64,000 bases of DNA from an uncultured bacterium (lineage in GTDB: Bacteria > Omnitrophota > Omnitrophia > Omnitrophales > Aquincolibacteriaceae): assembly GCA_964434115.1 (NCBI GenBank), contig CAYSSX010000002.1:137680-201679 (forward strand), read 5' to 3'. Below are positions 5,001 through 30,005 of this stretch, piece by piece. Made by a program: the position numbers and the translations under genes. The notes beneath the pieces are model-generated. The model searched no databases, was not told the DNA's origin, and saw only the letters and a program-made list of their open reading frames with translations. Position 1 is the first letter of the stretch; every line of letters begins with the position of its first letter.

Positions 5001-5207
5001 TACAGACACCGGTGCTTTACTTCCGTCTTCCGGAGTTACGGTGCCGGAAGGTGCAGGAGCCTGCTTTTCCGCAATGGCTTTTTGATTTGGGTCGGCAGCT
5101 GTTGTTGAAAACTGCTGAGCATAGGCCTTGGAAGTGAACGGGGTACCGTTCAGGCTCAGCGTTACGGTGACTACCCAGACCAGACTTTTCTTAAATGACT
5201 TTTTCAT
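2067..5207 (-). CDS. Large secreted protein with thrombospondin type 3-like calcium-binding repeats, a proline-rich linker and a coiled-coil C-terminus
   Basis: Likely start at MKKSFKKSLVWVVTVTLSL (signal peptide), 28 codons inside the six-frame ORF. The ATG follows the RBS-like GGGGTGAAAAC. Contains repeated D-x-D-x-D-G-x-x-D motifs (NGDHNGDGVIDTKDTDYANPEDRNKDGVIDVKD and 3x NKDGVVNTMDTDYTAQDT) and the proline-rich stretch PPVPMPPLPLPPKPIDPTTPPPGFDPP. Confidence 0.6.
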   Translation of the reverse strand: MKKSFKKSLVWVVTVTLSLNGTPFTSKAYAQQFSTTAADPNQKAIAEKQAPAPSGTVTPEDGSKAPVSVPGIPAYEEYPAEEMTLRTATNDERISEPSDKETTLLNPKPSGGNILYDAEGNPIAMTNKIDPVLTLQPSEEKAEDSANEPILKTLGQFEAADALEKTEEDLTVETAPEKIIDVNNVRNWEIISKEKAAYYIAEELRKELKTDVKVEVHAIDPLYEKMTSDMMAAGGVIGNRAFRALFSYSTAEGRGGKGAATLIFGFNGIRVILSGMGNPGEELPPVPMPPLPLPPKPIDPTTPPPGFDPPKIKEFRDAFEVIQDPNDASFYMQGELLLKRLSDGVNFFAHFSKDERQELKRGMHIFALLSNPKKMVEGNSDMWDAKIISKESGAGIKPSDNNGGQKFDDGGVVLNGDHNGDGVIDTKDTDYANPEDRNKDGVIDVKDSLLAKAEIGAFHVPADRMILVKGVIKRFKSDASAFLIAHGIDAIDGGGRKFGDEQKLEVDDNGIFYARLKADQPGIHRIHLLQRMQGGEDRVIAETKVEVAALRSTDAPAEEANKDGIVNTMDTDYTAQDTNKDGVVNTMDTDYTAQDTNKDGVVNTMDTDYTAQDTNKDEAVKTESSETRPKDSTTPDSAEIAAFKALAAPEGDVHSPAPENPVFSYEDAKSKAANGEGTIVDLDPKHPSESPCAEGVAIQSPGASGTTAWFCPNDASSNSGNGISATVADDNLFNTTSQPTEENSGRPLREPTEEELANTDAKESAHEDSTNTDHPVIKSTDPNKDGELDDKDRGNLPRVLEVRIPEPKSEATMNQESKEWAVVKLKMPEEPSSDEGLKPVDPQTFMIKAVSSPNQKPGAAIASAALQTPEVQRFFTAVMDIQPRFVPMISAESLKDLGQKLKGIGREAAAVLRSNAEGKIEAIKSEVRDKEIALKTDTTANNPDNGSRVSAVIPVFKREAEKQSPVIAAVRRDAEVQIKMIREENQNKIAEIKKLAEAAVAAVKNFKMNAPLAAAPVVTTQTPASFAPTLTGGSLLGGDDDKNLLS
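3369..3530. repeat. Three tandem, essentially perfect 54-bp repeats (18-aa unit NKDGVVNTMDTDYTAQDT on the minus strand), inside the CDS above
   Basis: Unit gtcttgggccgtgtagtcggtatccatggtgttaacaacgccgtccttgttggt starts at 3369, 3423 and 3477. Copies 1 and 2 are identical, and copy 3 diverges only in its last ~12 nt. A partial copy tail precedes at 3351-3368. Confidence 0.9.
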
Positions 5208-5553
5208 GTTTTCACCCCAAGGAAATTTTTTTGATAAAGACGAACCGTTCTTAAACGGTTTTAGTATCTTCAAAAGTAAATATAACCCCATATTGAGTTA
5301 TTACAAGCTATAGAGTCTTATTTTGCCCTATTAAAATCAAAAACATACAAAACTAATCAAGAAAATTAAAAAAAGAGCATAAAAAAGCTGGTTAATGCTA
5401 GACGCCAACAGTAGGCTAAAAGCAGCTTAACTCCCTGCGGTGCAAAAGGATGGAGGAATGTCTTGATAAATGGCCCTGCTTTTCGCATCATACACGTGTT
5501 TCATTTGCTCCCTCCGGGATAAAAACCATTCATTTTCTTAAGGACCCGCTCTC

Positions 5554-8211: not shown

Positions 8212-8316
8212 ATGAAAGTTTCCAGGAACAGCTCTCGGTTTACATACTTCCTTAAAACTACCTCTGCGGTTGTGGCTGTTTTTTTTACCGTGAATACGGT
8301 TTTTGCGGCTGCGCCC
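8212..8316 (+). other. Predicted signal peptide of the giant protein
   Basis: Basic n-region (K, R, R), hydrophobic core AVVAVFFTVNTVF, AxA-like cleavage site VFA-AA. Confidence 0.55.
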
Positions 8317-20300: not shown

Positions 20301-22335
20301 TGACCCTAACATGTCGGCCATGCTGGAAGCGACTGGCGCGAACAAAGTTGTTGTTGAGGTCTGGAATTCTTTCAAGGGAAAATTGAGCGGCGTGTCTCAC
20401 CGTGACGGTAACTATGCAGGATCTGTGCTTGTGGTGACGGCCTTTATTAAGGCCGGAGAAAACAAATACCCTACGGCCGAAGAGATCAATAGGGCTTTTG
20501 AAGATATTGCCGCCAGGGAAGATCTCAAGGGGATTTTGTCCTACAAGCCTGGTGTGATTTCAACAGGCCAAATCGCAGGAGACAGGACAACGTCGATGTT
20601 TTTGCCCGAGTTTACGAAAGTTGAGATCGGAAAAAACGGAGCGGCAGTGACCATGGTTGTCGGCTATGACAACGAAGCCGGATATACCAACGCGGTCATT
20701 CAGTTTGATCAGCTTCTCGCAATGGCGGCTCGCGGAGTGACTCCGCCTGCGGGGCTGGGAGCAGTGGATGCCGCGAATAAAGCCTTGGAAAATAAAATTT
20801 ATATGCAGCGGTATGAAGCACTTCTTCACAGGGTTCGAGGTTATCTGAACCTTAAAGCTCTCAATCTTGAGCAAAATCAGAGGGCGGCTTTTCTGGAATC
20901 CCTGCAGCAGCTTTTGGCCGTCCTTCAGCAAAACACAACGTCTGCTGGAGGGAATCGCGTGTTGGAAGCGGCTCGGGATGCTTTCAGCCAAGTTGAAAGA
21001 ATTGGAACTGCCGAAAATACGGAAATCCGGCAAGTTGAAAATGATCTTGAGAATACCATTTTTGAAATTGAAGACGCGCTCAACGGAACCCAGCCGCGCA
21101 GCGAACTCCGCAGCATTGAACTCGCAATCGAGGCTCTTGGTAATCTCGGACTCAGCATTTCTGATCAGGACCGGATCCGGTTTACCTCTGTGGAAGACGC
21201 TGCACGATACGCGGATCAGCAAATACGGGTTAACTTTGCTTCTCTTGATCTGGCTGGATTGAAATCGCGTGCCGATAAGCTGATACGCGAAGGACACACC
21301 CCTTACCAGGGACGCGAGGCGATTGAACGGGCGGTTCGCGAACTCAATGAGATCCGCGGGATTGATGCGCCCGCATTCCTCAATCACTTGGCAAATTTGG
21401 TGTCAGACCGGATTCGCGAAATCGGTTCAGCGCGCTCCGAACTCCGTGACCTTTCTCCTGCAGCGCCTGCCTTTGAAGACTGGAAAGCCAGTTACCAGAC
21501 AGCCTTACCGTTTTTAGGTGCTGATTACGAAAGCCGCCGCTGGGTCGCTGTCCACATGGCTGACGGCCTTTTTGCGGTTGTGCCCGCGGCGCTTGAACCC
21601 ATTATTCGGGATGCGGCGATGCAGTTTCTCAAACAGGATTTATTTTACTTTGATGGAAACTTTGAAAGACCGACAGATGCCTTGGGGGTCCCGGCTTCCA
21701 CCCAGCCTTCGGCCAACCAGCCTGGGCTTGAGATTTCAGTCACCCGGAAAATCGAAGACGCTGAAACGCATTTTCTTGCTGTGGCCACACTGCTGGCCCG
21801 GAAAGATCAAGCCTATGTTCATGAACTGCTTTTGGATGGCGACCCCGAAGAAGCGGCTCGTCTCAACCAGGCTTTTCGGGAGGAGTATGGTTACACAGGT
21901 TTTGCCGGCCGGTATCAGGTGACGGCGGTTTCTTCCAAGGATCTTGGGAAGAAAATTCAAGGGCTTGTCAGCGGGGTCTATAACAATGTCCGCTCTGCAT
22001 CGGACGCGGCCAACCTTCAGGATTTTATTGCCCGGCATGTCGCTTTCTCAAGCCCAGACCGCGAACTTCTTGTTAAGGGACTTGTCAACACAGGGTGGCT
22101 TATTCACGACGACTTGGGAAATCACCCAGGCATTATCGCGGCCCGTATGGACCGCTCGGTTTCTCTTGCTGCGGGACAGCTTGAGCCTGAGTTAATCCGC
22201 AAGCTCGGAGAAATTGCGGCTCTCCGGAAAGTTATTTCAGCGTCCGGGGAACTTTTTGCGGGGATGAACCTGCAGCTGATCCAGGACCTTTGGGACAATG
22301 CTGTGAAGCAGCGCTGGTTTTACAAGTCAGCATAA
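8212..22335 (+). CDS. Giant secreted multidomain protein (4707 aa) with a mosaic of metallophosphoesterase-, PPDK/PEP-synthase- and GAPDH-like modules plus coiled-coil and HEAT-like regions
   Basis: Single uninterrupted 14,124-nt ORF with RBS AAGGAA upstream. N-terminal signal peptide MKVSRNSSRFTYFLKTTSAVVAVFFTVNTVFA|AAP. Internal modules are listed as separate features below. Confidence 0.8.
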   Translation: MKVSRNSSRFTYFLKTTSAVVAVFFTVNTVFAAAPISINGGAMTSSAVNLGADSFSWFEGLQVPESFGRIESRYWPKETAVKGPAVIHIQDAHANPEAQRHIAELLGDLEARGIVSRISVEGAAGPLHPEILKVSSRSDINLKMADYLLELGELSGAELFALKHPQAPEILGAENTDLYRQSYQTFEKVKRAEVLIRPVLDTYAKELERLQIALFPKELHEYVIRSNEWHRSQERSFRYFDLLARYGREYLGLDFHDARLQFEWPMFVRLMALQDMESKIDSEKSRSESQEIVKALNASGNKISTQDREAFDFLSKKIKVLFDNPSETAAFVPDSRYSEIESIRSLMEFLKRKSQAARLELSLYPDFVKRSGVLILREEIDARMLFSEMEKVERQLEEKMSVSDAEKSLLKTARDFRLLEKLLSLTLTREEYETFSSRVQDFQPAAFRERFRLLDRELKQEKDYPLLSSETVTAAAEFYKLSRSRDEILLDQALSGASGQAVVLVTGGFHSQGMTDLLKERKIPHVVIAPKITTAGEDGLYDKVMMGGHSSSEAPANPALGTLAKMILSQLPSVYGVLQPGTRPEEQAALIFRGLRDAALPALREQGVPEQVIYDELSRWVSQTGVFSGTDFQVSFDSAASRVSLSGAASVETALRSELRMAPEPDTLAWIAANLPEDANRQKVVEAITALNDRKEKDYAEANGAYTGMSLSDFLLQNTAESIPDLDGLIRDVSRIEGLVQEVYSSFGIGGLSLAHRAAFILGAFSQAEFPVIHEALQTAYGAIRFDEHRYSEDLSAEEYARLARKFSEAVSRETVQENLLIRAALTEYVFNIPAQARRALEKENLVNELIRELQEPGKGRVPNLTFLTDLHGSTKVGSFIAFALGIDDYAGITSPQELERRLVADWQKKNPGAPEKSLNEILEERNVLIVGGSDYVDRGPKPYWGFQFNKWLREHGLLKFINGNHDLWKDWNVVGMHLRVHDTLRDIAASGKFNEADLAANIERIQRFVTTAGWDPEKDRTKFEDTEAQVREIMKTFMLGMQQGAVTDALIETVADAIIDSGNNANHSLEWWAREWGIHGGWFDTFLDQINEELINEAINAANIVISQEANAPRVMAMFKDESLLPEEIRPYVAAWREKLKAGKPMFDRVEASLFSKGEDVKTLKAEIERIKKANAEIRSANEKLAAEKRFGEMSPQHKVPSAFELTAKAAQAEMSRIKKALETLNDLLPGLNLPVPESEVVTQQNYRTNPSVAETALWDWKNFRLLYTDVYDNVYVHGIIPVDVEKLDFNVTYTNPQGEVFRGIAAIERIQYEVRSFFEKYDALPDTPEFRAELDAKLGAAFQVLNEWYSDVLGFLKPESIQGFLKSGGAKSYPFGQGSDLSPRQFKGALGAMHVGHVESAKLRKQKMSYWIGGMEGGLLHGDFEMSEGYSGLGAIIQWFRRDAAGKLLGFSRFGYKESVSFYNNQIKEKEKKLKEAAAVTAKARTDQKAELEIQGLEAAELKLRQDIEALKVQREALVSRGEQMEDITFHDDLLPADAEKIRPYKAGGDLARYYIDRFLRENIESYRSLKEEASKVGNKERAAFYERREQDVRERLKSFRKQESERMLDVLSGWNSGALQALAAARAAVGRQDYAAAAAALMPLTQSQDAGEDFTAALKQTAQALELFSRAELRGEDFVPQSELVLSDMAGSPAQVLGLFAAAQIASPKQARSELRSFDDDEEVVLSAELQNLFRDGLGMDPATFSREENKNILKSSEVFEFLINNPLFTGARKDQLRSIFQGNLTSWENLAAALLAARLAQPGLPDPGVEYRADAVFTLKMMERLGWELSSAAALRKPIEERARNLVKVYGAFTVSDSDFLATAAKALYRVVGNSFHATELIFDTTALTEQERHTVEQVQPFLEYIQNNNGFFGDRLGDLWQIFHNHLTSPSDMAKAFIESVEVSFKAPATSETPLIPDDAVHGHALKLIKSLLTLIPQDQSEIRLQALEKARAILSSDHTYHVVLSAIEVFDAIGTPALQDLVLYSAPSIPADYRKNAIWALARHRDAAVPYLAKLIMEEPEARSRNALAELLQRVSRESEYAPEPVMRRDVFDFFIGDRKIAEQLFALMGGQLPFYRQFINSSWLIPFDTKDRLNVLRARVALLQKFKGHFTASDFSTLLETWGFDSVSYWAERVDFTAQREHFQFLINLPRLDKSISPVSEAIQISRRDHTPEHTRSILLLLLEGGVLSGGGIGALIDLIRENPRDSVEIMAFLIVALKLQDFDFGEDGVVQRRISQLLHSNIGPVYFMARKLAKSIPHATNTSAGLEAGIRAPIAELDDSLGHGNMLFYFLRMEFHRAPSTGDLEVMRQTLRLMLDLHHPVPEKRIKSSDVDRVIRVRMQDLVRNVLHTRVFPAFKAPLVEQAAWFIGREVMNMGGTENDSPDYLLEHPPTWANFTDEEKQSEGYRAAQLLIRTFIGLRDRYVLNPRAIEFMNTGGAAKLASEGDVLGALRALQDWRQGMKQSLLTPSEMEDQWEMYIKRHITVNDFGYVSNSSYGNYSEAKFNEFERDRVLERFAENLHDEFLARLFPQYQESISQAAQAQTPAETKPETVLPESIREPLKNILLALRALVNQMAMDGIANERLVTLMRVLETESLDVRQAANIIALMQDESIRMYDFFNFHFSDYPKQLALTLGKERVFARYRKDNDDELTDKQWASRAQETLLADMNAEEKTISTLKRYLESLQVVFGSLKAQERQLLNPIPLIVGDLPVYSSSFDPETVSPVKVGSKAYELLTLKASGYPVPALSVLPSELPRTTKLAVANPMFRFSVLRSLLELEKESGRVFPFPSEGLTDAEKEQVRVFRQGYAFNPDAPPLSISIRSGSFYSMPGMMDTVLNMPFNEAIRDELIRRGEPEVFVLDNYRRFLSAYAISRYGIDSRFFSEAIDELKQKAAQRLGRSASAITIAQFNVEELKEVIQKFEEIISSRVSGFELEDPFTQVLKVTMDVYKSWNSNGATRYRQTFGISERFGTAVIYEQMVYGNRGSNSGTAVVISSDPAMGKHYMSGAWKFGGQGTELVSGMTGDYIALTHHEGQGQSLEAINPALFSEVRQVVEKLDRDRGPQDIEITAEDGKVYLLQTRPMVLSGKAPKMVLEPEQSARDAAIPAVQGVPVSPNAAVGRMVNARNLSIPKLKGIITELRRKMDEAGEEDLGIILVSDYVNDDTAAAILDVNSELGHRGITGIINSKVGVSSHAGLIARRLGIAYVSDVEGLEFNDVSGVTRLADQDLKFGMAGLVLSIDGYSTLQSEHSGKVFLGEVTHRFAKGSPTLGDRDEEIITQEEKPAFSYDPEEKPVLTKEPVRLAVNLGAFRVDKQGQSTGVLESNFDLSRAKITNTVPNRVFDAFLRSLVGNPNFSLTDIYGVEDAEKFFAFLRGNIAHGVFDINQMDVHKETDFWVLTLNGHNIRIHEAPAAPGILNQKVEYLIDFSDPDLTRETNEQREQRLKALQGGNLKRVFAFSGDEDPAARVLTPGINTQEFTDAQNLFLPLASPLTLAAAQVLSVIEKAFPGEFDVFSSVLATRPLSGEAGNIAFIRDKQFGSALKGLFPQIAPEVPGSPATMFEFDIPKGAGNVRLFLVPKPGSKFEQVKSLGKDEKAAMIKVLQKEINKAVETAAKGSLAPFLRYAGEEHLSSLTALRDTHAVVFDSQATAVVEGGKVELYFHMNDIGYAAALSKTLESFLAVDAEPIEALAKPLFAKQAAQGIWRTGTIAPNQIIQTPRFVAAGDEIGFGIIGVRGRIGKQVHQLLASNPNYVPEFWIGVQDIDTLIQQFKEDVGQGPADVVRDDEVYELEKGKDENKDHVLLKNKKTGAYLLNPKTNKPLAIPYYNITMKAQGDPEAFERHLRETLGDAIDRIETLFNAAGFGLDRNDPYYDAFLGGAKLKRIVLTAPAKGEVDVTVVRGVNESALAKAVENTEGQVLFCSAASCTTNGLGRALIEFVGILENAGFPADSVRFITHHAMTPSQGALFGAASAGKSQRTANDPNMSAMLEATGANKVVVEVWNSFKGKLSGVSHRDGNYAGSVLVVTAFIKAGENKYPTAEEINRAFEDIAAREDLKGILSYKPGVISTGQIAGDRTTSMFLPEFTKVEIGKNGAAVTMVVGYDNEAGYTNAVIQFDQLLAMAARGVTPPAGLGAVDAANKALENKIYMQRYEALLHRVRGYLNLKALNLEQNQRAAFLESLQQLLAVLQQNTTSAGGNRVLEAARDAFSQVERIGTAENTEIRQVENDLENTIFEIEDALNGTQPRSELRSIELAIEALGNLGLSISDQDRIRFTSVEDAARYADQQIRVNFASLDLAGLKSRADKLIREGHTPYQGREAIERAVRELNEIRGIDAPAFLNHLANLVSDRIREIGSARSELRDLSPAAPAFEDWKASYQTALPFLGADYESRRWVAVHMADGLFAVVPAALEPIIRDAAMQFLKQDLFYFDGNFERPTDALGVPASTQPSANQPGLEISVTRKIEDAETHFLAVATLLARKDQAYVHELLLDGDPEEAARLNQAFREEYGYTGFAGRYQVTAVSSKDLGKKIQGLVSGVYNNVRSASDAANLQDFIARHVAFSSPDRELLVKGLVNTGWLIHDDLGNHPGIIAARMDRSVSLAAGQLEPELIRKLGEIAALRKVISASGELFAGMNLQLIQDLWDNAVKQRWFYKSA
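10790..11500 (+). other. Calcineurin-like metallophosphoesterase module within the giant protein
   Basis: Ordered motifs D870-L-H-G (FLTDLHG, nt 10819-10830), GGSDYVDRG (GD-x-x-D-R) and G964-N-H-D (INGNHD, nt 11101-11112). These match the metallophosphatase signature DxH..GDxxDRG..GNH[DE]. Confidence 0.6.
16530..17630 (+). other. Pyruvate phosphate dikinase / PEP synthase-like nucleotide-binding (ATP-grasp) module within the giant protein
   Basis: VGSKAYELLTLKASGYPVPALSVLPSE (compare GGKGANLAEM..GLPVPPGF), SMPGMMDTVLNMPFNE (PPDK hallmark SMPGMMDTVLNLGLN), MVYGNRGSNSGTAVVISSDP...GE.LVSG and LLQTRPM. Confidence 0.65.
17690..18140 (+). other. PEP-utilizing-enzyme mobile (phosphohistidine swivel) domain-like module within the giant protein
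   Basis: GITGIINSKVGVSSH(3243)AGLIARRLGIAYVSDVEG resembles the GGxTSHAAIxARExGIPxVVG phosphohistidine motif. The candidate His codon is at 17938-17940. No PEP/pyruvate-binding TIM-barrel domain follows. Confidence 0.55.
19520..20720 (+). other. Glyceraldehyde-3-phosphate dehydrogenase-like module within the giant protein
   Basis: Gly-rich NAD-binding start FGIIGVRGRIGKQV. Active-site motif SAASC(3975)TTNG (ASCTTNC, Cys codon 20134-20136). FITHHAMTPSQGALFGAAS (compare TVHAxTxxQxxxDGPS). VVGYDNEAGYTN (compare WYDNEWGYS). Has a ~40-aa insertion in the N-terminal lobe. Confidence 0.7.
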
Positions 22336-22436
22336 GCGCCGAACCATTTTCTTTTTCGTCTTTCCGGTATGGCCGCAAGAAATCCGCTTTATCTTTTTGG
22401 AATATGTCCGATGAAAGCTCCATACGGAAAGGACCT

Positions 22437-23171
22437 ATGCCCAAGCGTCAAATCCTCGTCCTTCAGACTAAAACCAGCCCATGGAATGAATTTCTAAAAG
22501 AATTTTTCCAGGATACGGCATCGGAACTGTCCTTTTTTCAGGATCCTGCCGCCGTAAAAACGGCCTTGGAGCGCCAGCCTCACGAAATCGTTTTTGCCGA
22601 CCCCGCACTTGTTTCTCTTCCTTTGTCACAGGCCTTAGAAGTCGCGCGGCAATCGGGAAGGGATGTCATTGTTTTTTCAGCAGGAGCGGCACAGCCGGCA
22701 GCCCGGTTTAAATTCGATGAGAATTTTCCGGTTATTCCTGAAATGCTGGAATTTCAAAAAAAACTGCTTCGGTGCCTCCGGTTCCCCGAAAAGATTCATG
22801 TTCTTGTCGTGGACGACGAGCTTGAAATAGGAAGGATGATCTGTGATTTTCTGGATCGCCGCGTGAAGCCGTCCTTTGAAACCGAACATGCCCCTAACGG
22901 CGCGGAAGGGCTCCGCCGCATTCTTGAGCGCGCACCTGATGTGATGGTGCTTGATATTAAAATGCCTCTTCTTGACGGCCGTGAAGTTTACCGGGAAATG
23001 CGCAAAAACGGCCTGAATGTGCCGACAATCGTTTTTTTTGACGCTGTCTTTGGAGACGAACTCGCCGAGATGCGTCTTTACGGAAAGCCCGCAGTGATTG
23101 AAAAAGGCGCCCCCCAGAGCGCCCTTCCTGAATTACTCGAACTCGTAAAAAAGATGTGGTTTTTCTGCTGA
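22437..23171 (+). CDS. Response regulator with a degenerate N-terminal receiver-like domain plus a canonical C-terminal receiver domain, and no output domain
   Basis: C-terminal HVLVVDDELEIGRMI...VMVLDIKMPLLDGREVYREMRK (CheY-like DD..D..K). The N-terminal half (ILVLQTK...) has receiver-like spacing but lacks the acidic pocket. Start is ambiguous: ATG 22437 with GGAAAGGA upstream, alternatives 22404 or 22290. Confidence 0.6.
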   Translation: MPKRQILVLQTKTSPWNEFLKEFFQDTASELSFFQDPAAVKTALERQPHEIVFADPALVSLPLSQALEVARQSGRDVIVFSAGAAQPAARFKFDENFPVIPEMLEFQKKLLRCLRFPEKIHVLVVDDELEIGRMICDFLDRRVKPSFETEHAPNGAEGLRRILERAPDVMVLDIKMPLLDGREVYREMRKNGLNVPTIVFFDAVFGDELAEMRLYGKPAVIEKGAPQSALPELLELVKKMWFFC

Positions 23172-23226: not shown

Positions 23227-24333
23227 GTGTCTTCGCGGCTTGGAGATCAGATGCATTGTTTAAACCGCAGGTATTATTTCCGGCTCGTTTCTCTTCTGAT
23301 GGCTTCGGTCCTTTTCTTGCAGGGCTGCGCCGTCTGGCGGCCCTTTCCGTTAGATCGCATTAAGACATCTTCTCATGACGATCTTCCAGAAGCCTATCAG
23401 GGGTACTATGATTATCCGGCTGGAGAAAAAATCGGGACGATGATCACTTCCGAAGAAAAAGGCAGCTATGTTTTGAAACGCTTTGAAGTTCCGCTTTCTT
23501 TTCCTCAGGACTTGCTCCCGCCGGATTTAGAGGAACAAAAAAAACATGTGGAAGAACTGTCTAAAAACGACCAAAAAACAGCCGGAGATTTAAAGCTGAA
23601 TTTCACGAATAGAATAGATGTTTACTACCCCGCGAAGATGAAGGCAGGGGAAAAACGGCCGCTGATTTTAATTTCGCCGATCCTTGGCGGGAACATGGTC
23701 GTCGACCATTTCGCGCGCTACTATGCAGGACGCGGCTACATCGCGGCCATTGTGCATCGCAAGCGCCCTTATCTTTCCGATAAAGCCCAGGATCTTTCAG
23801 GGGCCGAGCGTTACCTGAGAACATCTGTCATCCGTCTCCGTCAAGCTCTGGACTGGCTTGAGACACATCCTGAAGTAGACACTGATCGCATCGGGGCGTT
23901 TGGAATCAGCTATGGAGCGATTCTTCACTCTGTTCTCGCTGCTGTGGAACCGCGTATTCGCTACCATGTTCTTGCCATGGCCGCGGCGCCGCTTTCGGAA
24001 GTCATTATGGAGTGCCCGGACAAGGGGGTTTCAAAGCTTGTCCGGAAAGCGCATGAAGAGTTTGGCTGGAGTCATGAAAAGATTGAAATGGAACTGAGAG
24101 AGCATATCAAAACCGACCCTCTCTATTTGGCGGCCTATGTCCCTAAAGACAAAGTTGAATTTTATGCCGCAGCTTTTGACCGGGTGGTGGGCGCCAAACG
24201 TTCTTTCGGGTTATGGAAGGCGATGGGAAAACCTAAGTTGAAGGTGATGCCCTTTGGCCACTATGGAGGGGTGATGATTCTGCCGCTTTTACAAACGCAG
24301 TCGTATTGGGCTTTCAAAAGTCATTTCAAGTGA
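23227..24333 (+). CDS. Alpha/beta-fold serine hydrolase lipoprotein (dienelactone hydrolase / peptidase S9-like)
   Basis: Lipoprotein signal RRYYFRLVSLLMASVLFLQG-C. GxSxG nucleophile elbow GISYGAIL and a C-terminal FGHYGG candidate catalytic His. Alternative start at 23251. Confidence 0.6.
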   Translation: MSSRLGDQMHCLNRRYYFRLVSLLMASVLFLQGCAVWRPFPLDRIKTSSHDDLPEAYQGYYDYPAGEKIGTMITSEEKGSYVLKRFEVPLSFPQDLLPPDLEEQKKHVEELSKNDQKTAGDLKLNFTNRIDVYYPAKMKAGEKRPLILISPILGGNMVVDHFARYYAGRGYIAAIVHRKRPYLSDKAQDLSGAERYLRTSVIRLRQALDWLETHPEVDTDRIGAFGISYGAILHSVLAAVEPRIRYHVLAMAAAPLSEVIMECPDKGVSKLVRKAHEEFGWSHEKIEMELREHIKTDPLYLAAYVPKDKVEFYAAAFDRVVGAKRSFGLWKAMGKPKLKVMPFGHYGGVMILPLLQTQSYWAFKSHFK

Positions 24334-24344
24334 AGTTTTGAAGT

Positions 24345-26816
24345 TTAGATTTTCCACGCCGCATCCCGTGTTTCTTCTTTAAGAAGTTCCTCCAAGTTGA
24401 AAGCATGGTAGGTGCTTTCAACCGCACGCTTGTCATCCTCGGCATTGGCGACCCAGAAATCCGGAAAAGCGTAAATGACACTTTGAATGTTAGAACCCGG
24501 AGCAATTTCTTTAGCAATAAGGCGTGCGGTTTCAGGGGTTATTTTTCCGTAATACTCTTGAACAAGATGACCGTGTTTGAGATAACGGATTTCGTAAGCG
24601 CTTCCTGCCGGCGGCTCAAGCCCATCTTTTTTGGGGTTGCCCTTTGAAGCCTTTTGAACATTTCTGACTTCAGGGTTGAGTGCCGTGTCTGCCCGGAAAA
24701 CAGCGTCTTTCAAACTAAACGCATAGGGGATCTTTTTCTCTTCCACATCGTCATCCTGAAAGAAAGCCAAGTGATTTCGAGTCGCCTCCACAGTCATGGC
24801 TTTTTTAGTTTTTGCGTCCGCGATCACGTAGTTATACCCGCGGGTGAGGTCGCTCCGCTTAAAGACAGCCGCGGCATCTTCAAGCGAAGAGGACTCTTCC
24901 AGAATCCGCTTTAAAAGAAAAGGCATGGGAACACCTTTCATTGTTTCGTCTGCGGATTCAGCCCCGATTTGCCCCACCGAAATTCCTTCGGAGTTCATGC
25001 CGGACAAGATGCCCGTGAAACCGCCATAGCCGATGTTGACCGTATCCGGCCCGCTTTTATTCTGGAAAACTTTTACAGCGGCCATGGATTGAACACCCAT
25101 TTTCCGGTTCCAGTCGAGATTGCGAATGGCGACAAGGCGCCCGCCCTCCGTGGCGTCGCCCCAGTAGGCGCCATTAGAGCACAGGGAAGGGTAAAGTTCC
25201 GGAAGGGCATGAATGCGGAGCATTTGTTTCAAAGAAATTTCAGCGCCATCCGCGACCCCTTGAATTTGCCGGTATTCGTCATAGCTGACAAAGGGACTCA
25301 TTTTCTTCCATGCCTGGCCGGAGATTCTGCGGATGATGAGCCGGTTAATGAGAGGGACTTTTAGCTCTTTCCGGAAGTAACTGAAAATTTGATCCACCCC
25401 GCTGTGGATTTCTTTTTTGAGTAAGCGCCCTTCCTCATACCCCCGGTGGTAGGCGCTGCCGCGCAGAATCAAAACCGGAAGGTCCGCGTTTCTGTCCAAA
25501 TGGCCTTCACCGTCCCGTGCTGATTTTTCGCTGGGATCCATGAGGGCATCGATCATCCTGTCCGCCTGCGCCTGAAAAAACCACTCCAAACCCGGACCGT
25601 AAAAACTCACCCGTGCTTCATACTCTTCCCGGTGATTGTAATAGCGGCGGGGAATGATGTAGCCCACATAGTCGTTTGCGTAGCCCGTGAATAAAGGTTT
25701 GAAGCCAGCCTCGCGCGCGCGCTTTTCGATCTCCGCGCCGATTTCAGAGGTGACCTCTCCCGGAAAGCATAGAAAGACTAACGGGCCGAGACGAACAGAT
25801 TGAAAAGGCGCATGACGCGGGAAAACTCTTCCGCCGATGACGGATGGAAAAGTGAGGGGCCCCAATCGTGTTTTGACTCGGGGCAATTGACGTGTTTCCC
25901 AAGTGCTTTTCCAGGAGGTGCTGAGATCCAGGGGAGAGAAAGAGATACTTTGAAAGGTGCTGACCAGGCTTTGGCCGTAGGCGGCGAGCCGTTCCTTTCT
26001 GTTCTCAATATCGGGGGCGTGAGGGCGTGTATCTCCCGCAGCACCGTTGATAAATAAGGCTGTAGAACCCGGCGATGCGGCTTCAAGAGCGCCTGTTAGG
26101 ATTCCGGGATAGTCGGCCGAAAATAAAAGTTCCTTGGCTGGAAAAAGTGTCGGGTGAGCAGCCATAAAAACCATCTGGGCCGCCAAGGTGTCATCCGCCA
26201 TTCTCCGAAAGCGGAGTGCTTTTAACTTTTGGGGGTAGCGGAGCTTTGTGATCATCCGGTTCTCGACAAGATCATCAATCCGGATTTCGCCATATTCAGC
26301 CTTTACAGGGACTTGTTCTGCAAGTGATTCCAGAACTGCGTCGCGCGCCTGATTTGTCAGCTGATCAAAAACATCCGCTTGAAATTTCCCCATGATGAAC
26401 CGCTCCCAATAACGTCCGCCGACAGCGCCTGCGCCCGAGTGTGTGTGCGTCGCGGTCACGATAAAGTGAGAATCTTCCAGCGGATACTGAGAAAGGATTT
26501 TTTTGTGGATTGTTTGGCGAAGGTTTTTGTCGATGAGGCAAAGATCAAGGGAAAGGAAAACAAAGGTCTCGCCGTCTCTGGAAAGACTGATGCTTCTCGC
26601 GAACAGAGGGTCATAAATACCTACTGTTTTTTTTCCCCGCAATTTTCCGTATCCTGAAAGGGGTGTTCCGGAAGCGGGGGTGATTTCCTTCTTCGCAGAA
26701 CCGAGGAGTATGGCAGGCGCAGCGTATTCTGCCGGCAGTGGAGGAGCAAAATACAGGAAGCAAGAAAACCCGAGAGCGAAAACCGCGGCAGCGGTCAATT
26801 TCCGGAAGCGGCGCAT
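24345..26816 (-). CDS. Secreted fusion protein: neutral/alkaline ceramidase-like N-terminal domain plus C-terminal Ntn-hydrolase (peptidase C45 / acyl-CoA:6-APA acyltransferase-like) domain
   Basis: Signal peptide MRRFRKLTAAAVFALGFSCFLYFA. The N-terminal half has LSGYGKLRGKKTVGIYDPLFARSISL...FLSLDLCLI...VTATHTHSGAG (neutral ceramidase-like). The C-terminal half has LCSNGAYWGDATEGGRLVAIRNLDW...GYGGFTGILSGMNSEGISVGQ, resembling choloylglycine / C45 Ntn hydrolases with Cys as nucleophile. Confidence 0.55.
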   Translation of the reverse strand: MRRFRKLTAAAVFALGFSCFLYFAPPLPAEYAAPAILLGSAKKEITPASGTPLSGYGKLRGKKTVGIYDPLFARSISLSRDGETFVFLSLDLCLIDKNLRQTIHKKILSQYPLEDSHFIVTATHTHSGAGAVGGRYWERFIMGKFQADVFDQLTNQARDAVLESLAEQVPVKAEYGEIRIDDLVENRMITKLRYPQKLKALRFRRMADDTLAAQMVFMAAHPTLFPAKELLFSADYPGILTGALEAASPGSTALFINGAAGDTRPHAPDIENRKERLAAYGQSLVSTFQSISFSPLDLSTSWKSTWETRQLPRVKTRLGPLTFPSVIGGRVFPRHAPFQSVRLGPLVFLCFPGEVTSEIGAEIEKRAREAGFKPLFTGYANDYVGYIIPRRYYNHREEYEARVSFYGPGLEWFFQAQADRMIDALMDPSEKSARDGEGHLDRNADLPVLILRGSAYHRGYEEGRLLKKEIHSGVDQIFSYFRKELKVPLINRLIIRRISGQAWKKMSPFVSYDEYRQIQGVADGAEISLKQMLRIHALPELYPSLCSNGAYWGDATEGGRLVAIRNLDWNRKMGVQSMAAVKVFQNKSGPDTVNIGYGGFTGILSGMNSEGISVGQIGAESADETMKGVPMPFLLKRILEESSSLEDAAAVFKRSDLTRGYNYVIADAKTKKAMTVEATRNHLAFFQDDDVEEKKIPYAFSLKDAVFRADTALNPEVRNVQKASKGNPKKDGLEPPAGSAYEIRYLKHGHLVQEYYGKITPETARLIAKEIAPGSNIQSVIYAFPDFWVANAEDDKRAVESTYHAFNLEELLKEETRDAAWKI

Positions 26817-26948
26817 CGTGAAAGCCCTCCTGAAATGAATTATGCCACAGGGACAGGCGCTGGCGGCGGGATATTTTTTTTCGGGAAGCTTGGGGGATTG
26901 AAAATCTCATGGTATGATTTTTAATACTTTTATTAAGGGGAAGGATCT

Positions 26949-27320
26949 ATGGCACGAGGAAAGATTCTGATTATTGATGACGAACTGGAAATTCGGGACT
27001 TTCTCAGAGATTTTTTTGAGGACCGCGATTTTGACGTTGTTACAGCCGCCCATGGGCTTGAGGGGTGTGAAAAGTTCAAAACCGCAGCCCCGTTTGACCT
27101 CGTGATCTGTGACATGTTGATGCCTCATATGATCGGCCTTGATGTCCTCAGAAACATTAAAGCAAGCGCTCCCGCCCAGCGGATTATTCTTATGACGGGC
27201 GTTAAAGAAAACTCGATGGTGGATAAAGCGAAACAACTTGGCTGCCATCTTTACCTGACAAAGCCCGTGGGGCTTTCGGATCTCGAAACCAAAGTGGAGG
27301 AATGTTTTCCCGCCTCCTGA
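26949..27320 (+). CDS. Stand-alone CheY-like receiver domain protein
   Basis: KILIIDDELEIRDFL...DLVICDMLMPHMIGLDVLRNIK...LMTG...LTKP. 123 aa, no output domain. Confidence 0.85.
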   Translation: MARGKILIIDDELEIRDFLRDFFEDRDFDVVTAAHGLEGCEKFKTAAPFDLVICDMLMPHMIGLDVLRNIKASAPAQRIILMTGVKENSMVDKAKQLGCHLYLTKPVGLSDLETKVEECFPAS

Positions 27321-27363: not shown

Positions 27364-29364
27364 ATGTGTTTGTTTTCGGGTTTTAAAAAAATAAAAGCCG
27401 CAGTTCTCCTTCAGGCATTTTTATTTCTATTCTCGGTATCTCCTGCCGTCCTTTCTGCTTCGGATATTCAAACGGGTCTTCCTGATGAGGAGCTGCTGGA
27501 GCTTATTTCCAGAAAGGCGTTTGATTATTTTCAGATGGAAAAAGACCGGGGGACAGGTCTTGTCCGAGACCGCGCGAACAATTTTCGTCGCGGCGCGTCG
27601 AACGCTCCGGCCAGTATTGCGGCAACGGGTTTTGGCCTGACCGCGCTTGGGGTGGGTGTTGAGAGAGGGTGGATCGATAGGGCCACGGCTCAGGAATCGG
27701 CCCGCCGGACCCTGGAGTTCTTTTGGAAACAGGCCCCGCAGGAGCATGGGTTTTTCTACCACTTTCTGGATCCCCGGACCGGAAAACGTTCCGGAAAGTC
27801 CGAATTGTCACCGATTGATACCGCGCTTTTTCTTGCCGGAGCACTTTTTGCGGCTGAGTACTTTGATGACCCCGGGCTTCGTCAATTAGCGGAGCAAATT
27901 TATGGGCGTGTGGATTGGCCGTGGATGATGCATGACGGGAAGACTTTGGCTCTTGCCTGGTCACCGGAAGAAGGTTTTAATCGGCGCCGCTGGGATCACT
28001 ATGACGAATCCATGATTCTTTACCTCCTTGCGATAGGATCTTCCACCCATCCGGTGGATCCCTCTGTGTGGCAGGAGATCGCGCGGCCTGTGGGGAGTTA
28101 TGCCGGCCATCGAGTCATCCAAATGCCGCCGCTTTTCACGCACCAATACTCGCATATCTGGATTGACTTCCGGAACAAGAATGACGGCTTTGCCGACTAC
28201 TTCCAAAACTCCGTGAATGCCACTCGCGCCAACCGGGAGTTTTGTATCCGGCAGTCCAGCCGATTTTCAAGCTATGGAGTGAATTCCTGGGGACTTACGG
28301 CTTCTGACGGCCCCTTCGGATATAAAGCTTACGGAGCTCCCCCGGGATGGGCCATTCATGATGGTACTGTGGCCCCCACAGCTTGCGGCAGTGCGATTGT
28401 TTTTACTCCCGAAGAGTCGATGGCATGCCTGCGGCACTTTTATGAGAATTTAGGAGATCAGCTTTGGGGGACCTATGGTTTTTCTGACGCGTTCAATCTA
28501 GACAAAAAATGGTTTTCAGATCAGGCGCTTGCGATTGATCAGGGCCCGCTTCTTCTTATGATTGAGAATCACCGGACCGGCCTTATCTGGGAAGTCATGA
28601 AGAAAAATACAAACCTGGCCGAAGCCATGCAGAAAGCGGGTTTCCGGGAGGGGGCAAAAGAAGTGCCTTGGCCTGATCCGCCCCATTTCAACGCACCCTT
28701 TCTGCAGGGGGGGATCAAGGTTGACGGGTACTTGAAAGACTGGCCCGGATTTCCTCCGCTAGTGCTGAATCCTAAACAGAAAGAAGGGGGTAATTTTTCA
28801 GATGATAAGGATGTCCGCGCCAATGTTCGCTTCGCTTGGAGCGGCGAAGCCCTTTATTTTTCAGTGATTGTGACGGATGACAGCGTCATGTTGAAGCGTC
28901 GCGGCAACCAGATTTGGCAGGATGACCTGGTGGAACTGTACATTGACCCGCAGAACGATGGGCTTCGCTGGAAGGATCCGTCTGATTATCAAATCGGCTT
29001 CCGGCCTAATTTTGACAGCGAGAACATCGAAATCTGGTCCTGGTTCCAGGCCAATCAGGATTCGGTCCAGAATATGGTCGCTGCCCGTGGATTCGCCTAT
29101 AAAGACGGCTATGTGATTGAAGGCGGCATCCGCTGGAGTGTTTTGGGGGTGGATCCGCAGGAAGGAAAAAGTGTCAAAGTTTCAATCGCTGTTCACGATA
29201 TTGATAAAGACCGGAGCGAAGGAAAGGTGCAGTGGTTTTTTAGAAACGAAGAAGATTTAGAACGATTCAACCTCGGAGAAGTTGTTTTGAGCCCTGTTTC
29301 CGCAGCGTCCAAACCTTTAAGTGCTGATAATCCTTCAACAGAATCTGCCGGAGGTGCGGGATGA
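27364..29364 (+). CDS. Secreted glycoside-hydrolase-like protein: (alpha/alpha)6 putative glucoamylase / GH144-like domain plus C-terminal CBM9/DOMON-like carbohydrate-binding module
   Basis: Signal peptide, then WDHYDESMILYLLAIGS, WGLTASDGPFGYKAYGAPP and FSDAFNLDKKWFSDQALAIDQGPLLLMIEN (similar to DUF3131 / PF10091-type glucanases). C-terminal GYLKDWPGFPPLVL...FAWSGEALYFSVIVTDDSV...WQDDLVELYIDPQNDG is CBM9-like. Confidence 0.45.
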   Translation: MCLFSGFKKIKAAVLLQAFLFLFSVSPAVLSASDIQTGLPDEELLELISRKAFDYFQMEKDRGTGLVRDRANNFRRGASNAPASIAATGFGLTALGVGVERGWIDRATAQESARRTLEFFWKQAPQEHGFFYHFLDPRTGKRSGKSELSPIDTALFLAGALFAAEYFDDPGLRQLAEQIYGRVDWPWMMHDGKTLALAWSPEEGFNRRRWDHYDESMILYLLAIGSSTHPVDPSVWQEIARPVGSYAGHRVIQMPPLFTHQYSHIWIDFRNKNDGFADYFQNSVNATRANREFCIRQSSRFSSYGVNSWGLTASDGPFGYKAYGAPPGWAIHDGTVAPTACGSAIVFTPEESMACLRHFYENLGDQLWGTYGFSDAFNLDKKWFSDQALAIDQGPLLLMIENHRTGLIWEVMKKNTNLAEAMQKAGFREGAKEVPWPDPPHFNAPFLQGGIKVDGYLKDWPGFPPLVLNPKQKEGGNFSDDKDVRANVRFAWSGEALYFSVIVTDDSVMLKRRGNQIWQDDLVELYIDPQNDGLRWKDPSDYQIGFRPNFDSENIEIWSWFQANQDSVQNMVAARGFAYKDGYVIEGGIRWSVLGVDPQEGKSVKVSIAVHDIDKDRSEGKVQWFFRNEEDLERFNLGEVVLSPVSAASKPLSADNPSTESAGGAG

Positions 29365-30005
29365 CGGAGCGTGAAAAGAAATCGATCTATCGCATCCTTG
29401 GGAATGCGATCCACGGCGAGGTGGGGCGGCGGCAGGCCGCTGAAAAGATCGATCTACAAGCCGCTATCAAGAGAATCCGTCTTGAAAAAAAACTTTCCGG
29501 CGTGGAGCTTTGCCGGCGGGCAGGGGATCTAGACCCCCGGACCTTGACGGCGCTCGAGAAAGGGAGAATTAAAAATCCAACGATCAAAACCCTTCAATCG
29601 GTTGCGAGAGGGCTTGGTGTTACCGTGGGCGACCTTTTTCGCTCGATTGAGATGAAATTTGAACAGAATTATTGTGTTGGGACCCCAAAAGGGGCCTTTC
29701 TTCTCGATTTTCCTAGGAAAGGTTTGAAAATAGTCTCCTTTACACCGTTGATACGTGATTTTTTCTGCGGTAAACTTATCCTTGGTCCCAAGGTGAAAGT
29801 GACCGACACTCTGATGGATCATCCATTTCCTATTTTCATTTCTGTGCTCGTTGGCTCTTTGGAAATAACGGTGGATCACCAAACCACCGTGCTTAAAGAA
29901 GGCGATAACCTTTTCTTTCATGGGGTGCTGAACCACAGCTTTACAAACCCCCTGCATCGCGAAACCTCGCTTCTTATGTTAATGGCTCCCTCTTTTTTAA
30001 AGTAG
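29361..30005 (+). CDS. XRE-family HTH transcriptional regulator with C-terminal cupin domain
   Basis: IRLEKKLSGVELCRRAGDLDPRTLTALEKGRIKNPTIKTLQSVARGLGVTVGDLF (HTH_3). C-terminal beta-rich region with HGVLNHSFTNP (cupin-like). Start ATGA overlaps the upstream stop. Confidence 0.65.
   Translation: MTEREKKSIYRILGNAIHGEVGRRQAAEKIDLQAAIKRIRLEKKLSGVELCRRAGDLDPRTLTALEKGRIKNPTIKTLQSVARGLGVTVGDLFRSIEMKFEQNYCVGTPKGAFLLDFPRKGLKIVSFTPLIRDFFCGKLILGPKVKVTDTLMDHPFPIFISVLVGSLEITVDHQTTVLKEGDNLFFHGVLNHSFTNPLHRETSLLMLMAPSFLK

Follow-up and report, generated by a model that had tools for sequence, protein, structure and literature searches.

Why would an uncultivated bacterium of the phylum Omnitrophota join two unrelated amidase-type domains in one polypeptide that carries an export signal? 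The question is raised by the gene at 24345–26816 (minus strand) of the window, as we call the whole 64-kb stretch of DNA analysed here. Neutral ceramidases and acid-ceramidase-type Ntn amidases form unrelated enzyme classes, both of which cut amide-linked fatty acids in eukaryotes. Bacterial relatives of the two classes turned out to be repeatedly fused or to share an operon; they co-evolve, and an esterase and a phosphoesterase recur as their partners.

The fusion gene and its two domains

The gene is one unbroken frame encoding 823 aa, located where the preliminary description had placed it. A Shine-Dalgarno sequence (AGGAGG) can be read directly at 26826–26831 (minus strand), 9 nt upstream of the ATG at 26816; a promoter and terminator scan around the gene gave no signal above shuffled controls. 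The protein has three parts: a signal peptide, a Zn-amidase domain (residues ~32–435) and a complete C45 Ntn-hydrolase proenzyme (~437–815). Residues 1–31 (26724–26816, minus strand) are predicted to form a Sec-type signal peptide or N-terminal anchor, with MRRFRK followed by a hydrophobic core (maxH12 2.24, four K/R before the core). In the AF2 model of the full chain (pLDDT 87.8, pTM 0.89), residues 2–22 are a low-confidence helix and residues 23–31 a disordered stretch. All 37 aligned homologues likewise begin with a signal-peptide-like stretch; together with the single ORF, this supports the earlier reading of the product as one secreted chain. Among 15 catalytic and motif columns checked, 14 are invariant in the 37 homologues, whose identity goes down to 23%; the sole exception is residue 776, an Asn in 34 of the 37. 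All motifs quoted in the preliminary description (SGYGK...GIYDPLFARS, ATHTHSG, LCSNGAYWG with its Cys at position 546, RNLDW and GYGGFTGILSGMN) occur in the translation.

The N half had been called ceramidase-like, and domain searches agree. Residues 32–435 (25512–26723, minus strand) match Pfam PF04734 (Ceramidase_alk) in two stretches with 83 bits, above the cutoff of 32.1 (E 2.3e-23). A profile search of PDB sequences found 2zws at E 2.5e-38, and Foldseek with this half of the model returned 2zws at E 3.1e-29 and 4wgk at E 6e-26. The ATHTHSG motif (26433–26453, minus strand) carries His124, the equivalent of a Zn ligand, and His126. In HMMER alignments to 2zws, residues H124, H126, R187, H221, E354, Y386 and Y399 pair with H97, H99, R160, H204, E411, Y448 and Y460 of the Pseudomonas aeruginosa ceramidase (PaCDase), and all of them are invariant in the 37 homologues. 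In PaCDase (2ZWS/2ZXC), His97, His204, Glu411 and Tyr448, along with His99, Arg160 and Tyr460, serve as Zn ligands or catalytic residues. Against the ceramidase equivalog NCBIfam NF041649, the N half scores far under threshold (30.8 bits vs 1200 required). The C-terminal Ig-like domain PF17048 was not found in the fusion protein by Pfam at E ≤ 1; the C45 domain sits in its place. Judged by sequence profiles and the structural model, the N half is a short Zn-amidase domain of the neutral/alkaline ceramidase superfamily, outside the bona fide neutral ceramidases as delimited by NF041649 and PF17048.

For the C half, the suggested C45/AAT-like Ntn hydrolase was recovered with NCBIfam NF040521 (C45_proenzyme; 134.9 bits vs 85, residues 452–687) and Pfam PF03417 (AAT; 37.3 bits vs cutoff 23.2). 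The best Foldseek match was AAT 2x1c_A (E 1.2e-17, target-normalised TM 0.79 with the AAT precursor), followed by the precursors of acid ceramidase (5u84, E 5e-13) and NAAA (6dxw, E 3e-12). Profile comparison with PDB sequences yielded NAAA 6dy3_B (E 2e-5) and acid ceramidase (E 1e-3), with the RN[LM]D motif aligned. Specifically, RNLD at residues 565–568 pairs with RNMD of 5u84, and the Cys-Arg-Asp constellation is kept (C546, R565 and D568, all invariant). Neither CBAH (PF02275), a family that had been proposed for this half, nor NAAA-beta (PF15508) matched the fusion protein at E ≤ 1; the likeness of the C half to the C89/C59 families is confined to profiles and fold.

Residues 437–545 (25182–25508, minus strand) make up the C45 pro/alpha segment, modelled as two beta-strands (within 439–452) and a five-helix bundle (455–541). 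In stand-alone C45 genes the homologous segment directly follows the gene's own signal peptide. The domain sizes estimated earlier were near the mark, except that the C45 unit has ~380 aa (437–815) rather than 350, because it takes in the ~110-aa pro/alpha segment that precedes the nucleophile. The segment is followed by Cys546 (codon at 25179–25181, minus strand), the predicted N-terminal nucleophile. The preliminary description had advised looking for a Cys exposed by autoproteolysis; Cys546 occupies the expected position and is invariant in 37 of 37 homologues. The P1 residue before it is hydrophobic (Leu in 18, Trp in 11, Phe in five), and in the AF2 model Cys546 is the second residue of a core beta-strand (545–553). 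Residues 546–823 (24348–25181, minus strand) correspond to the C45 beta chain with its Ntn alpha-beta-beta-alpha core; R565 and D568 (both in RNLDW, 25110–25124, minus strand), N608, E677 and S779 are invariant, and R744 is nearly so. By profile HMMs, position of the Cys and predicted fold, the C half is a peptidase C45/AAT-type Ntn proenzyme. From the conserved geometry of the site, self-cleavage is predicted between Leu545 and Cys546.

Fused and split forms and their neighbours

Of the best 150 representatives (50% identity), 34 or more span both halves. The continuous fusion was found in ~40 independent clusters in Omnitrophota, originating from different samples and assemblers; a distant fused clade occurs in Hydrogenedentota, Planctomycetota and Nitrospirota (Nitrospirales). 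In 17 species-level loci of Omnitrophota the halves are adjacent same-strand genes, each with its own signal peptide, at a spacing of −31 to +77 nt (16 loci) or 225 nt (one locus). Every split C45 gene has a signal peptide, and the fused forms have no internal one. Trees of the two domains agree with each other, and fused and split forms are intermingled in them; the halves are co-inherited. Some candidates for true splits (L006/L017, L009 and L021) were rejected as fused genes with a frameshift. Another sequence (P0044, 455 aa, half a ceramidase-like domain plus esterase) was excluded as evidence, since its short contig seems to be rearranged or chimeric. As the pairing recurs in several phyla, either as a fusion or as a two-gene operon, it is probably the marker of an undescribed pathway, one that would remove amide-linked fatty acids from membrane lipids.

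The architecture had been presented as apparently undescribed. This holds for the literature, where nothing relevant came up in searches on the fusion, on bacterial C45 enzymes, on short ceramidase homologues from bacteria and on N-deacylases of lipid A. It does not hold for databases, where the architecture is present in dozens of sequence clusters; these entries are annotated automatically after the N-terminal half only.

The gene at 23227–24333 (plus strand) is convergent with the fusion gene, the stop codons being 11 nt apart, and encodes a 368-aa lipoprotein-like alpha/beta-hydrolase (ABH) esterase. Its Pfam matches (S15, BAAT_C and S9) are weak. In the family alignment the lipobox Cys26 is near-invariant, while Ser220 (GxSxG), Asp310 and His337 are invariant. 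The AF2 model (pLDDT 90) has carboxylesterases as best PDB matches and is structurally nearest to CE7 acetyl xylan esterase/cephalosporin-C deacetylase and PETase-like enzymes. A lipase-specific match, sought with the predicted structure, was not obtained; only generic carboxyl/acetyl esterases were. Homologues of this ABH protein adjoin or neighbour the pair or the fusion in 20 loci across phyla.

An exported PHP phosphoesterase accompanies the pair or the fusion in 14 loci of relatives; within the 64-kb window we found neither a PHP partner nor further copies of the ceramidase-like or C45 domain. Other proteins combine C45 with ABH, the ceramidase-like domain with ABH, and PAP2 with a ceramidase-like domain, the last being of another ceramidase-like clade than that of the fusion protein. 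Beta-oxidation genes stand beside the fusion in two distant clades. One locus (L004) has the order FadB, acyl-CoA dehydrogenase, PlsC-type acyltransferase/lysophospholipase, fusion, and in three others (L043, L047 and L051) an enoyl-CoA hydratase gene abuts the fused gene. As only these four loci are concerned, the linkage is supportive and no general rule. Several window neighbours (two response regulators, glucoamylase/CBM9, HTH-cupin and OEP/RND genes and a giant ORF) were rejected as functional partners; they are syntenic only in the close Omnitrophota clade, and we therefore take their presence as lineage synteny.

Proposed function and alternatives

We consider it somewhat probable that the fusion protein, once exported and autoprocessed, works as a bifunctional N-deacylase on amide-linked acyl lipids, and that it belongs to a conserved exported module whose products would feed beta-oxidation. 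The signal peptide would direct translocation of the precursor, whereupon the C45 half would cleave itself between Leu545 and Cys546. The two resulting chains would stay together: chain A, with the Zn domain covalently attached to the C45 alpha segment, and chain B, the C45 beta chain with Cys546 as N-terminal nucleophile. The Zn site (His124, His221, Glu354 and Tyr386, with His126, Arg187 and Tyr399 as helpers) would cut one amide bond, and the Cys site (Cys546, Arg565, Asp568 and Asn608) would likewise cut an amide bond. The likeliest substrates would be amide-linked fatty acyl groups of membrane lipids (of sphingolipid, aminolipid, N-acyl-phospholipid or lipid-A type), drawn either from the bacterium's own envelope or from a prey or host organism. 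The enzyme's module partners would be the esterase-type ABH lipoprotein and, in many relatives, the PHP phosphoesterase; freed fatty acids would enter beta-oxidation.

The substrate class is suggested by analogy only with distant homologues (~12–21% identity). Several observations count against this reading: the N half is well below the ceramidase equivalog cutoff and is short of ~65 residues and the C-terminal domain of true ceramidases; the esterase partner resembles generic carboxyl/acetyl esterases, not lipases; beta-oxidation genes adjoin the fusion in four loci only; the PAP2 fusions belong to another ceramidase-like clade; and the window has no PHP partner. The preliminary description had envisaged that ceramide/sphingolipid-like or N-acyl substrates could be degraded in two steps. 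Ceramide, however, has a single amide bond, so that sequential action of two amidases requires another substrate; with the low equivalog score as well, two-step degradation of ceramide itself is not supported. The evidence supports two coupled lipid-type amidases better than a ceramidase specifically.

Other readings of the same data have to be weighed. C45 relatives are known to cleave non-lipid amides too, such as penicillin precursors and beta-alanyl-amines, and the substrates could be soluble amides or esters (N-acylated or O-acetylated glycans, peptidoglycan fragments, peptides, beta-lactam-like metabolites or acylated siderophores). The similarity of the esterase partner to CE7 and PETase-like enzymes points this way, as do a glucoamylase-like/CBM9 gene near the fusion gene in this Omnitrophota clade and the C45 membership of AAT (penicillin) and of insect Tan, a beta-alanyl-amine hydrolase (PMC10194958). 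We nevertheless find non-lipid substrates unlikely: the nearest characterised relatives of both halves are lipid amidases, the PAP2 domain fused elsewhere to a ceramidase-like domain is a lipid phosphatase, the enoyl-CoA hydratase, FadB and ACAD neighbours occur in two distant clades, and the glucoamylase-like gene looks like lineage synteny. Quite unlikely, too, is a role as acyl-remodelling transacylase, in which the protein would exchange N-acyl chains on the cell's own envelope lipid instead of hydrolysing them for catabolism. In such an enzyme the ceramidase-like site would deacylate or run backward, and an acyl-thioester on Cys546 would pass the acyl group to an amine. The nearest structural relative of the C half (2x1c) is indeed an acyltransferase, a PlsC-type gene lies directly upstream in L004, the module is found in diderm phyla having envelope lipids of their own, and neutral ceramidases can make ceramide in reverse, independently of CoA. 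On the other hand, acyl-CoA is absent outside the cytoplasm, which makes hydrolysis likelier than acyl transfer for the C45 half; the partners are hydrolases (esterase, phosphoesterases) and the recurring metabolic neighbours are beta-oxidation genes; and in sequence-profile searches the C half comes closest, among solved structures, to two hydrolases, NAAA and acid ceramidase, rather than to AAT.

We also asked whether the protein could effectively be a single amidase, one half being catalytically silent and only binding lipid, docking at the membrane or aiding folding; the C45 domain, for instance, might replace the C-terminal domain that true ceramidases have. The C45 unit does stand where canonical neutral ceramidases have PF17048, and a pTM this high suggests that the two domains form a rigid unit. 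Still, a silent half is very improbable given that no catalytic residue of either half varies among the 37 sequences, that the halves also occur as separate exported proteins from adjacent genes and that C45 is independently fused to esterase elsewhere. Split versions and frameshifted relatives might even raise the suspicion that assembly or gene calling has joined two neighbouring genes. This is hardly credible in view of the uninterrupted 823-codon frame in the window, the same continuous architecture in the ~40 independent clusters and the absence from fused forms of the internal signal peptide of split C45 genes.

The reading as a bifunctional N-deacylase can be carried further. The pair, the esterase lipoprotein and PHP/PAP2 might together constitute a dedicated, undescribed extracytoplasmic pathway that fully dismantles a complex envelope lipid to obtain fatty acids from prey or host. 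The target would then bear ester-linked and amide-linked acyl chains and a phosphate (lipid A, phospho-sphingolipid or N-acyl-phospholipid), with each amidase dedicated to its own amide position, and the users would be Omnitrophota, which are ultra-small and putatively predators or parasites, and further phyla of scavengers. We regard this extension as doubtful. To our knowledge, the phyla concerned have no cultured representatives and are suspected to be predators or parasites; the locus offers a concrete, cloneable candidate pathway for N-acyl lipid breakdown outside the cytoplasm. It would offer a starting point for assigning functions to thousands of short 'ceramidase N-terminal domain' and bacterial C45 proteins that are uncharacterised, and may yield new amidases for work on sphingolipids, aminolipids or lipid A. 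Database annotation, which at present names half of the fusion protein, is corrected as well.

Comparison with known systems

Neutral/alkaline ceramidases (PaCDase, 2ZWS/2ZXC; human ASAH2, 4WGK) have the catalytic-domain fold in common with the N half (Foldseek E 3e-29). By alignment, every Zn ligand and catalytic residue of PaCDase is kept, and PaCDase, like the fusion (predicted), is exported. Identity, however, is only ~20%, the N half is without ~65 residues between the equivalents of PaCDase 285 and 389, and a C45 enzyme is present where neutral ceramidases carry the Ig-like PF17048.

AAT, the acyl-CoA:isopenicillin N acyltransferase of family C45 (PF03417, NF040521; PDB 2X1C–2X1E), has the same proenzyme layout as the C half, a pro/alpha segment and then a Cys at the start of a core beta-strand, at ~14–15% identity. 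AAT is peroxisomal, whereas the fusion is predicted to be exported; P1 is Gly in AAT and hydrophobic (Leu/Trp/Phe) in the fusion family. Unlike in AAT, the alpha segment is covalently joined to a second enzyme.

Acid ceramidase (ASAH1) and N-acylethanolamine acid amidase (NAAA), Ntn lipid amidases of family C89, share with the C half the Ntn fold with a helical alpha subunit and a hydrophobic P1. Acid ceramidase is cleaved before Cys143 and has Cys143, Arg159 and Asp162 as catalytic residues (PMC5915598). These correspond to Cys546, Arg565 and Asp568 of the fusion in the motif C...R-N-[L/M]-D, with a three-residue indel between nucleophile and Arg. The eukaryotic enzymes are lysosomal, while the fusion is bacterial and predicted to be exported. 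Although the C half is not in the acid ceramidase/NAAA family, it plausibly works alike.

Also close are the two-gene operons of other Omnitrophota (for example GCA_016190215.1, L007; Ca. Omnitrophus fodinae, L022). Their domains are orthologous to those of the fusion (39–46% identity) and come in the same order; both proteins are exported, and the esterase gene found beside the fusion has its counterpart near the operons. The operons differ in making two polypeptides, each with a signal peptide, and some C45 copies are lipoproteins; where the operon C45 has this second signal peptide, the fusion has a short linker.

One reading frame with two amidase domains

The fusion gene is one uninterrupted frame of 823 codons on the minus strand (24345..26816), with an ATG start codon at 26816 and the sequence AGGAGG nine bases upstream of it (26826..26831); the single-protein fusion proposed in the preliminary description is thus borne out. 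Translation of this frame recovered all the motifs quoted there: ATHTHSG in the N-terminal half (26433..26453), LYPSLC546SNGAY with the Cys546 codon at 25179..25181, and RNLDW in the C-terminal half (25110..25124).

The N-terminal half matched PF04734 (Ceramidase_alk) with 83 bits (cutoff 32.1, E 2e-23), in agreement with the ceramidase-type assignment made earlier. A bona fide neutral ceramidase was rejected, as the score for the ceramidase equivalog NF041649 was too low (30.8 bits, cutoff 1200) and the ceramidase C-terminal domain, PF17048, had no Pfam match even at E<=1. For the C-terminal half, PF03417 (AAT; 37.3 bits, cutoff 23.2) and NF040521, ‘C45 family autoproteolytic acyltransferase/hydrolase’ (134.9 bits, cutoff 85, residues 452-687), support the C45/AAT part of the first assignment; Pfam gave no CBAH match at E<=1. 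Membership of the acid ceramidase, N-acylethanolamine acid amidase (NAAA) or CBAH families was rejected; nonetheless, the catalytic motif and the fold are common to the fusion and these enzymes. By curated thresholds and fold, the protein belongs to the PF04734 catalytic-domain superfamily and to peptidase family C45.

An AlphaFold2 model built on an alignment of 37 homologues had a mean pLDDT of 87.8 and a pTM of 0.89; so high a pTM over 823 residues implies that the modelled halves hold a defined relative placement. A signal-peptide-like N-terminus, judged by composition (residues 1-31: MRRFRK followed by a hydrophobic core and a disordered stretch), precedes the ceramidase-like domain (32-435), two beta-strands (437-452), a five-helix segment (455-541) and a core beta-strand (545-553), whose first and second residues are Leu545 and Cys546; the Ntn core spans residues 546-815. 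Foldseek searches against the PDB placed the N-terminal half closest to Pseudomonas aeruginosa neutral ceramidase, PaCDase (2zws, E 3e-29), and human neutral ceramidase (4wgk, E 6e-26). The top fold for the C-terminal half was the precursor of isopenicillin-N acyltransferase, AAT (2x1c, E 1e-17, target TM 0.79), followed by uncleaved acid ceramidase (5u84, E 5e-13) and the NAAA precursor (6dxw, E 3e-12), with bile-salt hydrolases, penicillin V acylase and cephalosporin acylases more distant (E about 1e-7). Family profiles run against PDB sequences matched 2zws (E 2.5e-38) and, for the C-terminal half, NAAA beta (6dy3_B, E 2e-5), acid ceramidase (E 1e-3) and 3gvz, an uncharacterised C45 structure (E 0.03).

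Residue correspondences were obtained by counting along HMMER alignments to 2zws. The zinc ligands of PaCDase (PDB 2ZWS/2ZXC) are reportedly H97, H204, E411 and Y448, which correspond to H124, H221, E354 and Y386 of the fusion; H99, R160 and Y460, said to be its catalytic helpers, correspond to H126, R187 and Y399. All seven residues are 100% conserved among 37 full-length homologues (>=23% identity). The same holds for C546, R565, D568, N608, E677 and S779 in the C-terminal half, and R744 is kept in 36 of the 37. In the profile alignment, R565-N-L-D568 pairs with R159-N-M-D162 of acid ceramidase, in which the roles of Cys143, Arg159 and Asp162 have been described (PMC5915598). By these residues both halves look non-degenerate: one polypeptide, predicted to be exported, carries two amidase active sites, both intact and differing in their chemistry.

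Fused, split and solo forms

A word-indexed search of 90%-identity clusters returned ∼40 clusters with both Pfam domains at 46-100% identity to the fusion, the named members being Candidatus Omnitrophica/Omnitrophota MAGs, as well as three distant clusters, also fused, at 23-28% identity. An exhaustive search of 1.84 billion representatives with HMMER yielded 10 305 matches at E<=1e-3; among the best 150 of these, at least 34 are single proteins in which one continuous match spans both halves (length about 745-890 aa, more in a few cases). Several large proteins (1000-1700 aa) show 2 to 4 separate stretches that match the C45 half (P0198, P0231, P0249, P0270, P0305 and P0309); PKD domains in P0198 and P0231 and an SLH domain in P0198 suggest C45 enzymes displayed on the cell surface.

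Arrangements were surveyed in one genome per GTDB species with domain-specific HMMs, taxon labels being partly those of depositors (e.g. ‘uncultured Planctomycetia’). Fused genes occur in eight Omnitrophota species, at six Hydrogenedentota and four Planctomycetota loci and in one Nitrospirales MAG. Adjacent same-strand gene pairs were found in 16 species (17 loci with L007), all Omnitrophota-type, Ca. Omnitrophus fodinae among them; solo ceramidase-like genes occur in many other phyla and solo C45 genes at a few loci. The C45 gene carries its own signal peptide at 17/17 split loci, with a lipobox in several, and starts −31 to +77 nt from the stop of the preceding gene at 16 of them (the gap in L024 is 225 nt); the pairs are therefore true operons rather than broken fusions. 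Fused genes with frameshifts form a separate class: orthologues at L006/L017 (4818..7209), L009 (454..2897) and L021 (5938..8129) are broken into two or three overlapping ORFs. The three assemblies are MAG or read assemblies, and the breaks may be frameshift errors or pseudogenes; such genes can pass for ‘split’ genes in automated counts.

Crude neighbour-joining trees of the two domains, built without support values, are broadly congruent, with fused and split forms interleaved; the two units therefore share a common inheritance, in which fusion or fission happened more than once. Ceramidase-like genes duplicated in tandem and lacking C45 were seen in Thermodesulfobacteriota, Syntrophobacterales and Nitrospirota (L056, 67..2551; L067, 5785..8566; L045; L048), where a second paralogue may replace the C45 partner.

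Genes around the fusion

In the window the fusion gene is a single minus-strand unit flanked by plus-strand genes. Convergent with its 3′ end, with stop codons 11 nt apart, lies the gene of a 368-aa lipoprotein-like alpha/beta-hydrolase (23227..24333, plus strand), the esterase partner. In its alignment the lipobox Cys is near-invariant and Ser220 (GxSxG), Asp310 and His337 are invariant. Pfam gave only weak matches (S15, BAAT_C, S9), and the AlphaFold2 model (pLDDT 90) resembled generic carboxylesterases most closely (7qjm, PET46, CE7 acetyl xylan esterase/cephalosporin-C deacetylase). Esterase homologues occur in 20 loci overall: convergent with the fused gene and directly downstream of it in virtually all Omnitrophota fusion loci whose flank is long enough, adjoining or within a few kb of split pairs, and adjoining solo ceramidase-like genes of Nitrospirota, Thermodesulfobacteriota and Syntrophobacterales. 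Members of the family also adjoin the tandem duplicates at L067 and L048, and the lone ceramidase-like gene at L044, a related locus in Nitrospirota. Among the exhaustive-search matches, three proteins fuse C45 to an alpha/beta-hydrolase homologous to the window esterase (P0262, P0266 and P0307; E 1e-15 to 6e-17) and one fuses a ceramidase-like domain to an alpha/beta-hydrolase (P0225).

Unbiased neighbour clustering detected an exported PHP-domain phosphoesterase (about 365-390 aa) in 14 loci of Omnitrophota, Nitrospirota, Syntrophobacterales and Bacteroidota, beside ceramidase-like, C45 or esterase genes (e.g. L002, 11661..12755, minus strand; L045, 753..1925, plus strand); it was not found within the 64-kb window. 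Export is unusual for a PHP enzyme. At seven loci a 513-565-aa protein without Pfam match is encoded directly downstream of, and overlapping, fused genes of the Hydrogenedentota/Nitrospirales type (L005, 4937..6517; L038, 3161..4855; both plus strand), and is probably an operon partner. Two distant clades have genes of fatty-acid oxidation right beside the fused gene: at L004 the genes on one strand run in the order FadB-like, acyl-CoA dehydrogenase, PlsC-acyltransferase/lysophospholipase-like, fusion, and at L043, L047 and L051 an enoyl-CoA hydratase gene directly abuts it. Fusions of a PAP2 lipid phosphatase with a ceramidase-like domain (P0250, P0256, P0264) belong to a ceramidase-like clade different from that of the window protein.

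Other neighbours are syntenic in the close Omnitrophota clade only; they are regarded as lineage synteny, and a role as functional partners was rejected. Receiver-domain response regulators of 293 aa (22290..23171) and 123 aa (26949..27320), both on the plus strand, flank the esterase/fusion pair and could regulate it locally, but their synteny is restricted to the close clade; L002 has a CHASE2 histidine kinase in place of the smaller one. Beyond them lie a secreted 666-aa protein with PF10091 ‘putative glucoamylase’ and CBM9 (27364..29364, plus strand), an HTH-cupin regulator (29361..30005) and OEP/RND efflux genes (30119 onwards). A giant 4707-aa ORF (8212..22335, plus strand) has only two Pfam matches (PPDK_N, residues 2863-3076; GAPDH C-terminal domain, 3998-4137), and a metallophosphatase-like motif was noted by eye. 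Its C-terminal region is kept beside the same gene cluster in L015, L010, L011 and L002, the last with a 10 303-aa ORF at this position; Omnitrophota are known for giant genes (PMC10066038; bioRxiv 10.1101/2023.11.21.568195). Apart from these, a 1074-aa ORF (2067..5291, minus strand) had no Pfam match at E<=1e-3.

Possible substrates and proposed maturation

Full-text literature searches found no paper on a ceramidase-like plus C45 fusion, on the short bacterial ceramidase-like subfamily, on bacterial C45 enzymes of this clade or on the four-part module, and two Omnitrophota genomics papers do not mention these proteins. The architecture, of which the preliminary description knew no earlier account, is unstudied, but it is already visible in databases, where fused proteins are annotated as ‘neutral/alkaline non-lysosomal ceramidase N-terminal domain-containing protein’ and the C45 half is ignored. 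What we add is evidence for a conserved multi-enzyme module.

Function is judged here from distant similarity to characterised enzymes (12-21% identity) and from gene neighbourhood. Each site would take off acyl groups held by an amide bond. Four observations favour a lipid substrate: among characterised enzymes, the closest relatives of both halves are lipid amidases; fusions with a PAP2 lipid phosphatase are found; the fusion has beta-oxidation genes beside it in two distant clades; and the partners are membrane-anchored lipoproteins. Among the candidates are sphingolipids, ornithine/glycine aminolipids, N-acyl-phospholipids or N-acylethanolamines, and lipid A. The two-step degradation of ceramide suggested earlier is unlikely as stated, since ceramide has one amide bond; possibly the sites act in parallel on different chain lengths or head groups, or sequentially on a lipid with two amide bonds. 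The two genomics papers propose predatory or parasitic lifestyles for Omnitrophota, under which foreign lipids might plausibly be scavenged.

After export the C45 half would cleave itself at Leu545|Cys546, as AAT, acid ceramidase and NAAA do. The ceramidase-like domain would then stay bound covalently to the C45 alpha segment and non-covalently to the beta chain, giving a two-chain, two-site mature enzyme. The predicted autoproteolytic site, which the preliminary description had proposed looking for, has its Cys546 invariant in 37/37 homologues, and the preceding residue is hydrophobic (Leu in 18, Trp in 11 and Phe in 5). In this respect it is closer to acid ceramidase, which is cut before Cys143, than to AAT with its Gly-Cys site.
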